Below are positions 2,424-32,000 of a DNA stretch of 32,000 nucleotides, in pieces. The position numbers and the translations under genes were made by a program. A model generated the notes under the pieces. It had not been told where the DNA came from. It did not search any database and worked only from the letters and a program-made list of their open reading frames with translations. The DNA comes from Dickeya solani IPO 2222 (GTDB lineage: Bacteria; Pseudomonadota; Gammaproteobacteria; Enterobacterales; Enterobacteriaceae): contig NZ_CP015137.1 in NCBI RefSeq assembly GCF_001644705.1, positions 2,580,001-2,612,000 of the forward strand, read 5' to 3'. The first letter of the stretch is position 1. Every line of letters begins with the position of its first letter.

Positions 2424-2903
2424 ATGTCACATCTAATTTATTTGACGCTAGAGGGGAACCAGCAGGGATTAATTTCCTCTGGTTGTTCAACATTTGACTC
2501 TATTGGAAATCGTTATCAAAGCGGACATGAGGATCAGATTCAGGTATTAGGGTTAAGTCATTCTATAACCAGAGAAGAGAATATAGCTCACCATCCTATA
2601 CAATTAATTAAGCCAATAGATAAATCATCGCCGTTGCTTGGCATGTCTATAACATCGAATGAGCGACTTACAGCTAAATTCTTTTTTTACAGAACAAATC
2701 TTGCTGGGCAATTAGAGGTTTTTTATGAGTTGAAATTAGTAGATGCAAGAATCGTAGATGTATCATCTTCTTATCCTCATGCTATTAATAACAATGAAAC
2801 CTTACCGTATGAAGTGATTAGGTTAAAGTATAAATCAATAGAGTGGTCCCATAAAACGGCGGGAACGTCTGGATATAGTATATGGAATGAGAGTGATGAA
2901 TGA
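2424..2903 (+). CDS. hcp: Hcp (TssD) family type VI secretion tube/chaperone protein; orphan copy with no other T6SS core genes in the window
   Basis: The 159-aa length and the N-terminus IYLTLEGNQQGLISSGCSxxDSIGNRYQSGHEDQI, then KPIDKSSPLL and a C-terminal AGTSGYSIW, match enterobacterial Hcp proteins as I recall them. AAGGAG lies upstream of the ATG. The gene sits in an AT-rich islet. Confidence 0.85.
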   Translation: MSHLIYLTLEGNQQGLISSGCSTFDSIGNRYQSGHEDQIQVLGLSHSITREENIAHHPIQLIKPIDKSSPLLGMSITSNERLTAKFFFYRTNLAGQLEVFYELKLVDARIVDVSSSYPHAINNNETLPYEVIRLKYKSIEWSHKTAGTSGYSIWNESDE

Positions 2904-2993
2904 TTTTGTGACGGATTTTTTATATATTGTATAAGGCTATTCAGCGTGTGATTAAAAATAAAAGGATTTAATTAGGGGTAAAGGGAGGTAAGG

Positions 2994-3593
2994 ATGGATA
3001 TCAAAGAAGGCCTTTTTACCTTTAATGCTGAAGGTGATGATATACCTAATAGTCTCTATTTTTCAAGAAAGATCCATTGGCCTGGGAACCCGGCTATTTG
3101 TAAAGATATCGCATCTGGCGTAACGATAGGAAGAGGATTCGACCTTGGTCAAAGAACTCAGTCTGAATCATATTATCATCTGATGAGTGCAGGTATTCCA
3201 CAAGAGAAGGCAATGATGATCTCGGAAGGTTCAGGGATGCATGGATGTGAAGCATCAGATTTTGTTACTCGGAATAGGGATAAAATTGGTGAAATAACTC
3301 ATTTTCAGCAAGCTAATTTATTTAAGATATCATTTCCTTCATATATTACAAGGGCCAGAGGGTTTTATAACAGATATAAAAACTCTAATACTGTGTCTTG
3401 GGATAATATGGATGAAAGGATGAGGGATATATTTATTGATATGATATATCAGGGATCGATGAGAATTAGATATGTTTCTTTTTTTGAAGAGAACAACCCT
3501 GATGCTGTTATCTCGCTGATAAAAAACACATCCAGTTTGGCTGCTTATGACAAAAGTAGAAAAAGAGTGATTTACTTAAAGGGGGAGAAATGA
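2994..3593 (+). CDS. Candidate Hcp-associated T6SS effector with a lysozyme-fold, pesticin C-terminus-like muramidase domain
   Basis: The gene lies directly downstream of hcp with a GGGAGG RBS. An N-terminal acidic residue in FNAEG is followed about 30 aa later by SGVTIGRGFDLGQR. This is the E...(S)GVTIGxGxDLG pattern I associate with pesticin-type/T4-lysozyme-like muramidases. Later FKISFPSYITRARGFY and IDMIYQG segments resemble that family. There is no signal peptide, consistent with T6SS delivery. The coding call is solid; the functional call is moderate. Confidence 0.55.
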   Translation: MDIKEGLFTFNAEGDDIPNSLYFSRKIHWPGNPAICKDIASGVTIGRGFDLGQRTQSESYYHLMSAGIPQEKAMMISEGSGMHGCEASDFVTRNRDKIGEITHFQQANLFKISFPSYITRARGFYNRYKNSNTVSWDNMDERMRDIFIDMIYQGSMRIRYVSFFEENNPDAVISLIKNTSSLAAYDKSRKRVIYLKGEK

Positions 3594-29278: not shown

Positions 29279-29363
29279 GCCGAAGTGGCGAAATCGGTAG
29301 ACGCAGTTGATTCAAAATCAACCGTAGAAATACGTGCCGGTTCGAGTCCGGCCTTCGGCACCA
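29279..29363 (+). tRNA. leuX: tRNA-Leu (anticodon CAA)
   Basis: The 85-nt sequence GCCGAAGTGGCGAAATCGGTAGACGCAGTTGATTCAAAATCAACCGTAGAAATACGTGCCGGTTCGAGTCCGGCCTTCGGCACCA matches E. coli leuX as I recall it. It has a long variable arm, the anticodon loop TTCAAAA and an encoded CCA. Confidence 0.95.
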
Positions 29364-29582: not shown

Positions 29583-30839
29583 ATGGCCCTGACTGACGTT
29601 GTTGCCCGTACCGCTAAGCCCCGCGAGAAAGCCTATAAGCTCGCGGATGCACATGGCCTGTACCTTTTGGTGAGCCCTAACGGTTCTAAGCGCTGGTATC
29701 TCAAATATCGCTTTGAAGGTAAGGAAAGCCGGATTGCATTCGGTGCCTATCCGCTAGTCTCGCTGGCGAAGGCCAGAGAGAAGCGTGATGAGATACGATT
29801 GCTGCTGTTGGAGGGCATCCACCCAACGGAAAAGCGCGAAGAAGAAAAAGAGCAGGCGCAAGAGGCGTTGAATACTTTTGCCAAGGTCGCGCAGGACTGG
29901 CACCGAAACATTAGCCAAAACCGCTGGTCAGAAACGCATGCAGGACGGGTATGGCGCGATATGGAACGAAATTTACTACCTGCTATCGGGCATCGCCATA
30001 TTGCCGACCTGAAAACCAAAGACCTGCTGGAGCCGCTGAAAGTCGTCGAACAAAACGGCCATCTTGATTTAGCGTCACGACTGCGCCAGCGCGTCACCGA
30101 TATTATGCGTTACGCGGTGCAGAATGACCTGATAGAGCGCAACCCCGCGCAAGACCTCTCCGGCGCGATAGCCGCGCCAAAAGCTACCCATCGGCCAGCC
30201 CTGAAGCTGAATAAACTGCCGGATTTTCTGGCACGGATAGAACGCCACAAAGGGCGAGCGTTAACCAAACTGGCCTTAAAACTCACGCTGTGCGTTTTTA
30301 TCCGCTCCAGTGAGCTACGTTTTACCCGCTGGCCGGAAATCGATTTTAAACGTGCCATGTGGACGATACCGGCTGAACGTGAAGCCATTCCCGACGTGAA
30401 GCATTCGCAGCGCGGCGCAAAGATGCGCTCTGAACATCTGGTGCCGTTATCCCGACAGGCTTTAGCGCTGCTGGAAGAGATTAAGGCCATCAGCGGTGCT
30501 CATGAGCTGATTTTCCCCGGCGATCGTCGGCCAACTAAACCGATGAGTGAAAACACCGTCAACAACGCATTACGAACCATGGGCTATGACACCACTACCG
30601 AAGTGTGCGGACACGGCTTCCGCACCATGGCCTGTAGCGCACTGGTGGAGTCCGGCCAGTGGTCGCGGGATGCGGTAGAGCGCCAGATGAGTCATCAGGA
30701 ACGTAATGGCGTTCGTGCTGCCTACATCCACAAAGCGGAGCATCTGGATGAGCGTAGGCTAATGCTGCAATGGTGGGCGGATTATCTGGATGCGAACAGG
30801 GAAGCGTATGTGGTGGCGTATGAGTATAACCCCATTTGA
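29583..30839 (+). CDS. int: P4-like (IntB/IntS/CP4-57 type) tyrosine recombinase/integrase
   Basis: The N-terminal DUF4102-type arm-binding region is LTDVVARTAKPREKAYKLADAHGLYLLVSPNGSKRWYLKYRF. The C-terminal catalytic residues lie in IRSSELRFTRW (R), HGFRTM (H-x-x-R) and RAAYIH (Y). Confidence 0.92.
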   Translation: MALTDVVARTAKPREKAYKLADAHGLYLLVSPNGSKRWYLKYRFEGKESRIAFGAYPLVSLAKAREKRDEIRLLLLEGIHPTEKREEEKEQAQEALNTFAKVAQDWHRNISQNRWSETHAGRVWRDMERNLLPAIGHRHIADLKTKDLLEPLKVVEQNGHLDLASRLRQRVTDIMRYAVQNDLIERNPAQDLSGAIAAPKATHRPALKLNKLPDFLARIERHKGRALTKLALKLTLCVFIRSSELRFTRWPEIDFKRAMWTIPAEREAIPDVKHSQRGAKMRSEHLVPLSRQALALLEEIKAISGAHELIFPGDRRPTKPMSENTVNNALRTMGYDTTTEVCGHGFRTMACSALVESGQWSRDAVERQMSHQERNGVRAAYIHKAEHLDERRLMLQWWADYLDANREAYVVAYEYNPI

Positions 30840-30930
30840 TTGTGTTACCTATCGGGAGGTCTATCATTCCTTGCTGTAGATTAGAATAGAATAATGATAA
30901 ACTGTAAAAAATAATGCATCATGTAACTAT

Positions 30931-32000
30931 ATGAAAATATTGGTAATAAGTGATTTGCATGTTGGAAAAACTGCCCGCGCTAAAGATTTCTGCACTCTGA
31001 GCAGTGACGCTACGTCTGCGATTACAGAGAATTTTATTGAAGATTTCAGAGAATTGGTTCAGTCAGAAAATCTCAGCGCAACACATTTATTAATCGCCGG
31101 TGATATGACGAATAGTGGGGAAATACCTGAATTTGAAATGGCAGCTGAGAGGATACAAGACATAATAAATATTTTGAGTATTGATCTCAAGAACGTTTAT
31201 TTTGTTCCTGGCAATCATGATGGAAATTGGGGGCATGAGAAAGAATCCTCAAAAAGAGGAGATAAGATAGAAAAAACTAGAGAAGCAAAATATCTTAATA
31301 TAAAAAGCAATGATTTTTTTTCGAGTGTTTTAAATAACACAAGTTTTTCTTCATATTATAAGGACCCATTCTCAGCTATTTGGGAAAGTGATAACATTAT
31401 TGTCGTTGGTGTAAACTCTTCAGCATATGATAGCTGTGATAAAGAGGTTAAGTTTGGAGAAGTCGATTTAAAATGCCTTGATGCATTACAGAAGAAGCTT
31501 CTCGAAATGAAAAAAAAGAAAGATAGACGCCTTAAAATTCTACTAACACATCATCATCCAAAAATTTATACGGATAGAACTTTTGCTGATGCAGATTTAA
31601 GTCAAATGAAGAATGCAGAGGACTTCTTACATTTTGCCAGTAAGAATGAGTTTGACTTTATCGTACATGGTCACAAACACATTCCTCGCTTTAACTTTCA
31701 AGTTGATTCAGATGGTTATGCGGTAAATATTCTTAGTGCAGGAAGTTTTAGTGCCCAATTAAAAGATTGGCATAATGGAGTTGCTAATTTTATTCATTTA
31801 ATTGAACATCATGACTTTTGTCCGGAAAATAATTATTCAAGAGGTAGGGTAATATCATGGTCATATTTTACAAATCATAAATGGAAACATTCTCAATATG
31901 ATAGAGATATGATTAACCATGAGGAGTATTTTGGAAGTGTGCTATCTAAAAATAAACTTAAAGCTATCTTGAAAAGAGAAATTTCCGAGTGGAAGGCTAC
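30931..32000 (+). CDS. Calcineurin-like metallophosphoesterase with an additional C-terminal region; 3' end outside the window (not in the supplied ORF track)
   Basis: I translated this by hand from ATG 30931. There is no stop through base 32000 (356 codons). The full MPE motif set is in order: ISDLHVG, AGDMTNSG, PGNHD, LLTHHHP and VHGHKHIP. It is very AT-rich and is the first cargo gene after the integrase. Confidence 0.75.
   Translation, partial: MKILVISDLHVGKTARAKDFCTLSSDATSAITENFIEDFRELVQSENLSATHLLIAGDMTNSGEIPEFEMAAERIQDIINILSIDLKNVYFVPGNHDGNWGHEKESSKRGDKIEKTREAKYLNIKSNDFFSSVLNNTSFSSYYKDPFSAIWESDNIIVVGVNSSAYDSCDKEVKFGEVDLKCLDALQKKLLEMKKKKDRRLKILLTHHHPKIYTDRTFADADLSQMKNAEDFLHFASKNEFDFIVHGHKHIPRFNFQVDSDGYAVNILSAGSFSAQLKDWHNGVANFIHLIEHHDFCPENNYSRGRVISWSYFTNHKWKHSQYDRDMINHEEYFGSVLSKNKLKAILKREISEWKA

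Follow-up and report, generated by a model that had tools for sequence, protein, structure and literature searches.

The window analysed here is a 32,000-nucleotide (nt) stretch of the Dickeya solani IPO 2222 genome (contig NZ_CP015137.1, positions 2,580,001 to 2,612,000). An open reading frame (ORF) that begins at ATG 30931 on the forward strand and runs off the window end encodes a calcineurin-like metallophosphoesterase with a C-terminal winged helix. This gene is part of an obligate three-gene operon, which an earlier note on the same DNA had missed, and is followed by genes for a P-loop ATPase and a CARF-like protein. The gene composition of this cassette, the strict linkage of the operon, the folds of the products and the partition by host order of an adjoining Dam-family methyltransferase are direct observations. 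The defence role, the substrate and the trigger of the cassette are what we infer. With slightly better than even confidence, we read the ORF as the effector of a horizontally acquired, defence-type cassette that is linked to DNA methylation and lies on a leuX island.

The three-gene operon and its Dam-family methyltransferase

The cassette consists, in order, of the phosphoesterase gene, a gene for an ORC-CDC6-like P-loop ATPase of about 600 amino acids (aa) and a gene for a tandem CARF/SAVED-like protein of about 315 aa. In D. solani the ATPase (589–599 aa) starts 5 nt past the phosphoesterase stop, or 29 nt before it with an upstream start codon, and the start of the third gene, which encodes 316 aa, overlaps the ATPase stop. 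A scan of one genome per species gave 79 loci, in which ORFs were called and searched iteratively with the three cassette proteins. The ATPase gene comes next on the same strand in 29 of the 29 loci that have a family-type phosphoesterase and enough contig; the CARF-like gene is also present in 28 of them, and the contig of the 29th stops within the ATPase. Neighbouring genes of the cassette abut or overlap in at least 8 phyla, and the cassette loci span Gamma-, Beta- and Alphaproteobacteria, Acidobacteriota, Verrucomicrobiota, Bacteroidota, Spirochaetota, Gemmatimonadota, Latescibacterota and Actinomycetota. The same arrangement is found in the annotated neighbourhoods of Enterobacter, Citrobacter, Vibrio, Pseudoalteromonas and Pseudomonas. 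Klebsiella, Enterobacter, Serratia, Yersinia, Vibrio cholerae and Pseudomonas aeruginosa hold homologs, as do many environmental phyla.

Two other loci consist of a 620-nt contig and a truncated phosphoesterase gene (L023) between two inverted ORFs resembling insertion sequences (IS), and the latter was rejected as an exception to the ATPase linkage. The flanking ORFs in this locus, from Flagellimonas oceanensis, each encode 331 aa (50–1045, −, and 2504–3499, +), and the copy looks like an IS-flanked remnant without a downstream ATPase. Split cassette genes were seen in a few genomes, namely the CARF-like gene in V. cholerae (L006, 11060–11925), the ATPase gene in a Korobacteraceae metagenome-assembled genome (MAG; L018, 2419–4340), and the phosphoesterase gene in Pseudoalteromonas (L012, 7992–9229) and in a Hyphomicrobiales MAG (L033, 7986–9247). 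These may be either real decay or assembly errors.

The family of the second protein is given by Pfam PF24389 (ORC-CDC6-like), which a 74%-identical Enterobacter homolog matches over its full length with 332 bits. Walker A (G47-x-R-G-x-G-K-T54) and Walker B (D234-E235) are invariant. Sequence similarity to PDB entries is marginal, the best being PtuA (E=5e-4), and the best 120 of 336 matches in a profile search are only close, uniform family members. No homolog of the ATPase was found among 72,556 plasmids, and the matches of the phosphoesterase on plasmids are generic (24–26% identity).

The third protein is predicted to be a CARF/SAVED-type sensor. It matches the PADLOC CARF6 model PDLC01912 (E=7e-165), and its AlphaFold2 (AF2) model, with a mean predicted local distance difference test score (pLDDT) of 93.8, has two Rossmann-like lobes. 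One lobe superposes in a fold search on the CARF domains of Csm6, Cam1, Can2 and Csa3, and over its full length the protein gives a weak alignment to the Cap4 SAVED domain. After strand 4 it has the conserved motif D110-Y-S-S-M-S-R116, which fits the CARF signature [DN]x[ST]xxx[RK]; the second lobe carries conserved loops after its first and fourth strands (G269-P-K-P-H273). A profile search of the PDB by sequence gave no match, so that relatives came from the fold search alone. The family comprises 349 clusters at E<=1e-30 and 2,417 at E<=1e-3, and its best 150 matches are about 190–350 aa long, mostly about 310–330 aa, with no fused domain. Profile, fold and motif all agree with the CARF/SAVED superfamily; a cognate cyclase was not seen, with no Cas10, CD-NTase or SMODS cyclase family listed in any Pfam-annotated cassette neighbourhood examined.

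Outside Enterobacterales, Vibrionales and Alteromonadales, a Dam-family methyltransferase gene adjoins the cassette in 23 of 23 cases. Inside these three orders, Dickeya included, the count is 0 of 14. The gene lies directly upstream, or downstream and sometimes convergent; loci that carry it are L014, L017–L022, L024–L033, L036, L037, L040, L084 and L087–L091. A D12-class methyltransferase gene precedes the phosphoesterase gene in P. aeruginosa and P. syringae, ending about 22 nt before it. Four of the methyltransferases were tested and score 203–226 bits on TIGR00571 (Dam family), against a cut-off of 115. These enzymes keep DPPY together with N120, R124, N126, N132 and P134, the changes K9R and Y119F being conservative; these positions are the GATC-reading residues of E. 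coli Dam. Enterobacterales, Vibrionales and Alteromonadales are known to carry Dam, SeqA and MutH.

In a neighbour-joining tree of the ATPase and CARF-like proteins, all methyltransferase-less cassettes fall into a single clade, with the Pseudomonas cassettes as its sister group. The loss of the methyltransferase is therefore best counted as one event, and several independent losses were rejected on the same ground. Branching inside this clade contradicts the species tree, with V. cholerae beside Cedecea, and Pseudoalteromonas beside Enterobacter and Dickeya; the methyltransferase-less form has therefore moved repeatedly, and only among Dam-positive hosts. We read the four-gene form as ancestral, the Dam-family gene being missing only in the cassette lineage that circulates among Dam-positive hosts. 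This pattern suggests that the cassette needs GATC N6-adenine methylation, which host Dam would supply in Dickeya.

Catalytic domain, C-terminal region and integrity of the phosphoesterase gene

The window holds the first 356 of the 410 codons of this metallophosphoesterase-winged-helix gene (30931–32000, +), a predicted Calcineurin-CE-type effector. Its catalytic domain covers aa 1 to about 275 (30931–31755, +), as delimited by motifs and by NCBIfam and fold matches. The earlier note had read five calcineurin-like motifs in order, and all are at their places on the forward strand: motif I DLH (aa 8–10, 30952–30960), motif II GDMTN (aa 57–61, 31099–31113), motif III GNHD (aa 94–97, 31210–31221), motif IV HHHP (aa 207–210, 31549–31560) and motif V GHKH (aa 247–250, 31669–31680). 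Their key residues are invariant in 108 homologs. The Pfam Metallophos profile (PF00149) scores 67.3 bits against a gathering threshold of 21.5 (E=3e-18), and the ordered motifs, the profile score and the sandwich fold together place the protein in the calcineurin-like metallophosphoesterase superfamily. A further family-invariant residue, N162 in VNSS (31411–31422, +), lies at the spacing of N367, the Asn reported to recognise the substrate in PUA-Cal, as judged by spacing and not by direct alignment.

By far the best NCBIfam model is DS9_1, "anti-phage phosphoesterase" (E=3e-32, 112 bits over aa 3–253, against an equivalog cut-off of 420). The DS8 model follows with E=1e-11 and 42.9 bits against a cut-off of 790, and the SbcD, CpdA, PdeM and YfcE models give 1e-4 to 1e-6. 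All these scores lie below the respective cut-offs: TIGR00619 (SbcD) reaches 26.7 bits against 77.65 and covers the N-terminal 99 aa only, and the CpdA equivalog NF008359 reaches 23.4 bits against 225. The PADLOC model "Effector endonuclease" (E=7e-9) and an exonuclease PHROG of phages match weakly. The gene had not been recognised as a named defence protein, and this agrees with PADLOC and NCBIfam matches that are all sub-threshold.

A structure search returned 101 PDB matches at E<=1e-3, and the best 50 of the 101 are all calcineurin-fold metallophosphoesterases. Fold neighbours include B. subtilis YydB, SMPDL3A/B, Rv0805, GpdQ and Lmo2642 (E 1e-11 to 6e-18). Mre11 folds come at ranks 36–38 with E~1e-6, compared with 1e-12 to 1e-18 for nucleotide phosphodiesterases, and this, together with the TIGR00619 score, makes the SbcD/Mre11-like nuclease of the earlier note a weak option. 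The catalytic domain resembles DS-9A and the nucleotide phosphodiesterases far more than Mre11/SbcD or CpdA. The top fold match, PDB 9a6c chain B, is YydB in an integrative model with YydD. YydB and YydD make up another pair of a phosphoesterase and a partner, for which literature searches gave no described function.

Within the sampled loci, more distantly related domains form part of NACHT/NB-ARC-HEAT, Roc-WD40, TPR-sensor and AAA proteins. In such conflict-system architectures, calcineurin-type domains are predicted to be nucleotide-directed effectors (PMC7159879). Because of the DS9_1 and DS8 matches, the nucleotide phosphodiesterases among the fold neighbours and the relatives in conflict-system proteins, the phosphoesterase is placed, by similarity to the DS-9A model, in the Calcineurin-CE effector clade, to which DS-9A/PUA-Cal belongs. 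It is a member of neither DS-9 nor DS-8. Its operon with the ATPase and the CARF-like sensor, and the relatives fused to NACHT, Roc and TPR, give it an effector position in a multi-component conflict system. In an Actinomycetota MAG (L084, 7998–10394), a second protein of 798 aa with a related phosphoesterase domain is encoded 1.3 kb past the four-gene cassette.

The extra C-terminal region of the earlier note is present and conserved, and it can now be assigned, through AF2 and Pfam PF24408. The AF2 model was built with 108 sequences on P0002, the closest complete homolog found (84% identical, with the same length and motif positions), and reached a pLDDT of 93.6 and a predicted template modelling score of 0.93. 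It shows four strands followed by a canonical winged helix. The conserved beta-strand extension (aa ~276–339; 31756–31947, +) has strands at 286–296, 303–313, 317–320 and 331–334; H289, G305, W318 and G335 are invariant and N286 and W310 nearly so. The winged-helix region starts at aa ~340 (31948–32000, +, within the window) and has helices at 340–357, 363–369, 371–375 and 378–392 and strands at 360–362, 394–398 and 404–408. The C-terminus is thus modelled as a beta extension of the catalytic sandwich (aa ~286–334) and a winged helix-turn-helix (wHTH, aa ~340–408). The homolog P0007 matches PF24408 (wHTH-Calcineurin_assc) with 30.5 bits against a cut-off of 27, and a precomputed match to the same model exists in many members of the family.

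Translation yields 356 codons without a stop from ATG 30931 to 32000 (+), as the earlier hand translation had it, and the remaining five frames of this interval contain 16–51 stops each. The probability of 356 open codons by chance at the local base composition is about 4e-14. The ORF was absent from the supplied list because the ORF tool does not report frames that run past the window end, as had been supposed. Over its final 7 kb the window matches D. solani CP017454.1 (locus L086) with 100% identity, and the full gene and its downstream neighbours were obtained from there; complete E. coli genomes contain no near-identical DNA. In CP017454.1 the gene is intact and encodes 410 aa, which would put its stop at window position 32163 with 54 residues beyond the window, and it is followed by the ATPase and CARF-like genes. 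The protein had been called a large metallophosphoesterase; the enzyme class stands, and the size is only relative, since the whole homolog family is uniform at about 410 aa.

It is scarcely credible that the gene is a decaying pseudogene in D. solani. The idea draws on assembly GCA_013339845.1 (L001), where the phosphoesterase and ATPase genes are both split, and on two 8-nt homopolymers in the ORF: T8 at 31314–31321 (+), which is T7 in that assembly and splits the gene there, and A8 at 31510–31517 (+), in which no variation was seen. Over 18 kb, however, this assembly differs from CP017454.1 by five one-base homopolymer deletions (one intergenic) and no substitutions, a pattern typical of assembly error. 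CP017454.1, identical to the window, has all three cassette genes intact, and the ATPase is intact on at least 38 D. solani contigs among the matches listed. Phase variation at T8 and a pseudogene were therefore both rejected in favour of homopolymer-length errors in one assembly, and the frameshift on which the earlier note would have given up its claim was not borne out. Tracts of 8 nt such as the A8 run are prone to sequencing error and, in principle, also to slippage. The deletions yield a spurious 218-aa "hypothetical protein" annotation (L001 9426–12427 versus L086 7011–10014).

Island setting and cassette neighbourhoods

As had been proposed, the phosphoesterase gene comes first among the cargo genes of an island, which is of the leuX type: it is preceded by a tRNA-Leu(CAA) gene, a P4-type integrase gene and a fall in GC content. 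The tRNA gene (29279–29363, +; ARAGORN) is the integration site of the island. The tyrosine integrase of 418 aa (29583–30839, +; Pfam Arm-DNA-bind_3, Phage_int_M and Phage_integrase) marks its edge. An AT-rich spacer (30840–30930) separates the integrase stop from the ATG, and in the composition profile GC falls from about 0.55 to about 0.31–0.39 at about 30800, by the integrase stop. The cassette has 31.7% GC, compared with 58% in the adjacent core genes. The spacer has no convincing promoter, a scan for promoters and terminators having given nothing above chance (24 sites against 24.1 expected); no obvious Shine-Dalgarno sequence could be read before ATG 30931. No second copy of the tRNA 3′ end occurs within 15 kb downstream in L086, and the far end of the island therefore lies further away.

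Beyond the window the island continues (L086, 11359–20954) with an XRE-type helix-turn-helix (HTH) gene convergent on the cassette, AlpA and a second integrase (Integrase_1), a RelE/MqsA-like toxin-antitoxin pair, a pair of Ser/Thr kinase and PP2C phosphatase genes, and a type I restriction-modification HsdM gene. A small XRE-family HTH_31 gene lies convergent just past the cassette both in P. aeruginosa (L087, 15083–15340, −) and in Dickeya (L086, 11359–11622, −). It could be a regulator or a coincidence.

The layout of an integrase followed by the cassette is shared by Dickeya, V. alginolyticus (P4-type integrase and AlpA) and Pseudoalteromonas (DUF3258-type integrase). No integrase adjoins the cassette in Enterobacter, Citrobacter, V. 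cholerae or Pseudomonas. Genes of conflict systems lie near several copies: besides the toxin-antitoxin pair and HsdM of Dickeya, a SymE toxin gene stands beside the cassette in Enterobacter and Citrobacter, SIR2_2 and GmrSD genes lie upstream of it in P. syringae (L090, 1–5030), and one P. aeruginosa strain has a Wadjet system (DUF3375/JetA, JetB and JetC) some 5 kb downstream of the cassette (L089, 18806–21248).

Proposed function and comparison with known systems

Metallophosphatase effectors have only recently been validated in anti-phage defence, and one mechanism is known. DS-8 (metallophosphatase-NACHT) and DS-9 (metallophosphatase with HAD) both protect against phages and need their catalytic residues (PMC13092281). 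DS-9 is PUA-Calcineurin-CE-HAD (PUA-Cal-HAD), whose Calcineurin-CE converts deoxynucleoside diphosphates (dNDP) to monophosphates and can cleave NAD+, and so collapses the pools of deoxynucleoside triphosphates (dNTP) in an abortive infection (PMC12871103). It needs host Dam, and its trigger is N6-methyl-deoxyadenosine monophosphate (m6-dAMP), freed when the host chromosome is broken down by the phage; modules related to it occur in linkage with N6-adenine methylases but with no restriction enzyme (PMC12871103).

For the cassette we propose a similar course. During infection, the ATPase and the CARF-like sensor would switch on the phosphoesterase, which would hydrolyse nucleotides (dNDP/dNTP, NAD+ or a related pool) and not DNA, and this hydrolysis would stop phage replication by abortive infection. 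The trigger would depend on the GATC methylation that in Dickeya comes from host Dam. By analogy with m6-dAMP sensing in PUA-Cal-HAD, the likeliest trigger may be a methylated adenine nucleotide that is released from the degraded, marked chromosome and bound by the CARF-like protein. The earlier note had offered an abortive-infection effector among its options. A role as defence effector is the best-supported reading; the abortive infection is probable.

A bolder version can be put forward tentatively. The cassette may carry out a cyclase-free abortive infection that reads the methylome, in which the CARF domain senses an N6-methylated adenine (deoxy)nucleotide from the phage-degraded, GATC-marked chromosome and, together with the ATPase, unleashes the nucleotide-depleting Calcineurin-CE; its own Dam would barcode hosts that lack Dam and would be shed in hosts that have it. 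If this is true, the cassette would hold a second, independently built sensor (CARF as opposed to PUA) for a danger signal derived from the methylome, and its CARF would be the first one known whose ligand is a modified mononucleotide rather than a cyclase product.

Several points weigh against the main reading of a methylation-linked defence cassette. It leaves no clear job for the ORC/Cdc6-like ATPase or for the winged helix, both of which suggest engagement of DNA, and the AAA+/ORC assignment of the ATPase itself is taken from its Pfam label. The DS-9A match is far under the equivalog cut-off (112 versus 420 bits). The Dam status of the hosts is that known for their orders; the methyltransferase loss is one evolutionary event, so that the host partition is suggestive and not a statistical proof. 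The neighbourhoods in V. cholerae and Enterobacter contain few or no recognisable defence genes.

The ATPase and the winged helix would find a place in a rather doubtful alternative that resembles BREX or restriction. Here GATC methylation would be a self mark, the ATPase and the winged helix would read unmethylated or under-methylated DNA, and the phosphoesterase would cut or nick that DNA, in the manner of Mre11/SbcD or PglZ, or be switched on by it. Phages grown on Dam-positive hosts have DNA that is largely GATC-methylated, and the benefit would therefore be limited just where the methyltransferase-less form thrives. The tight linkage of a Dam-family methyltransferase wherever the host is without Dam is what modification-based systems would show, and autoimmunity would explain why no methyltransferase-less cassette occurs in Dam-negative hosts. 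ORC/Cdc6-like AAA+ ATPases such as BREX BrxC and fast-evolving wHTH modules, typical of such systems, recur in them together with effectors (PMC12839542), and the phosphoesterase does carry a C-terminal wHTH and has weak matches to the PADLOC "Effector endonuclease", sbcD and a phage exonuclease PHROG. Its catalytic domain, however, is much nearer to the nucleotide-directed phosphodiesterases and DS-9A than to Mre11/SbcD, and it is not obvious what a CARF/SAVED-like sensor of small molecules would do in DNA restriction. We favour a danger signal over a self mark because of what the effector clade is related to, because a small-molecule sensor is present but no cyclase, and because restriction of GATC sites that lack methylation would bring little in Dam-positive hosts. 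The two may also be combined in a hybrid.

The remaining readings take the phosphoesterase out of defence. It is very unlikely to be a housekeeping or signalling cyclic-nucleotide phosphodiesterase of the CpdA/Icc type, even though several homologs are named "3′,5′-cyclic AMP phosphodiesterase CpdA" by JGI and Rv0805 and Lmo2642 are among the fold neighbours. The CpdA equivalog score is a tenth of its cut-off (23 versus 225 bits), the distribution is patchy and horizontal, at unrelated loci and in integrase islands, with 31.7% GC in a genome of 58%, and the gene is always co-operonic with the ATPase and CARF-like genes, joined by the Dam methyltransferase outside the Dam-positive orders. Just as improbable is the anti-defence or signal-degrading role that the earlier note had also raised, in which an enzyme of a mobile element would shield the island or a helper phage by destroying immune second messengers (cyclic oligonucleotides). 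The fold class includes the cGAMP-degrading SMPDL3A (PMC13092281), the CARF-like partner could bind cyclic oligonucleotides, and the gene does lie on an integrative island; yet neither the phosphoesterase nor the CARF-like protein has a homolog in 50,697 phage genomes, the plasmids contain none of the ATPase, and the cassette stands without an adjoining integrase in Enterobacter, Citrobacter, V. cholerae and Pseudomonas. The linkage to a Dam methyltransferase would also be left unexplained.

The three cassette proteins matched no system in PADLOC (v2) and no anti-phage equivalog in NCBIfam, and the literature searched, for the gene combination as well as for CARF6 and YydB/YydD, yielded no experimental work on the cassette. 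The components, and probably the whole cassette, have already been noticed in comparative genomics, since dedicated Pfam models (wHTH-Calcineurin_assc and ORC-CDC6-like) and a CARF6 class exist. The cassette would be a defence system in which a Calcineurin-CE effector stands under an unstudied control layer, made of an ORC/Cdc6-like ATPase and a CARF-like sensor without a cyclase. The Dam partition is the most useful new lead, being a natural experiment whose mechanism can be tested in dam+ and dam− hosts, and it bears on whether a defence that depends on the host methylome would use methylation to mark self or to signal danger. The cassette is widespread yet unnamed in PADLOC v2 and NCBIfam, and genome annotation misses it. 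As D. solani is a potato pathogen and a target of phage biocontrol, the cassette is also a candidate determinant of phage resistance.

Among known enzymes, SbcD/Mre11 and CpdA/Icc share the five-motif binuclear metal site and the sandwich fold with the phosphoesterase. Unlike them, it scores far under their cut-offs, is mobile and patchy, and has a 590-aa ORC-CDC6-like ATPase in place of an SbcC/Rad50 partner; unlike CpdA/Icc, it is island cargo at sites that differ from genus to genus and has no conserved housekeeping context. The third protein resembles the CARF/SAVED effectors Csm6, Can2, Cam1 and Cap4 in its CARF fold, its [DN]x[ST]xxx[RK] motif and its two-lobe, SAVED-like layout, but differs in that it is stand-alone (among its best 150 matches), is not associated with CRISPR and has no Cas10 or CD-NTase in the Pfam-annotated neighbourhoods. 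With BREX (PglX, BrxC and PglZ), the four-gene form has in common an N6-adenine methyltransferase, an ORC/Cdc6-like ATPase, an effector of a metal-dependent phosphoesterase fold and wHTH modules. In contrast to BREX, the cassette is much smaller, has a plain Dam-family methyltransferase, a calcineurin fold instead of an alkaline-phosphatase fold and a CARF-like sensor, and lacks BrxA, BrxB and BrxL; no PADLOC BREX model matched.

Closer still are the systems that use the same class of effector. DS-8 and the STAND/GTPase calcineurin proteins (PMC7159879) share with the cassette SMPDL3A as a structural neighbour and an NTPase switch coupled to the phosphoesterase. Whereas DS-8 joins the two in one protein, the cassette phosphoesterase of 410 aa has no NTPase/NACHT domain, and the NTPase is separate and of a different, ORC-CDC6-like family; the cassette also adds the CARF-like component and the methyltransferase link. 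The closest named relative of the catalytic domain is DS-9/PUA-Cal-HAD of E. coli ECOR28, which likewise has a calcineurin-like effector acting on nucleotides, an activity predicted for the cassette; dependence on Dam N6-adenine methylation is shown for PUA-Cal-HAD and would apply by inference to the cassette. The phosphoesterase described here differs from DS-9 in having no PUA domain, since it starts MKILVISDLH with motif I at residue 8 and matches the DS9_1 profile from position 196 on. The HAD partner is missing too, and the cassette instead brings a wHTH at the C-terminus of the phosphoesterase, a P-loop ATPase as a separate protein, and a protein with tandem CARF lobes.

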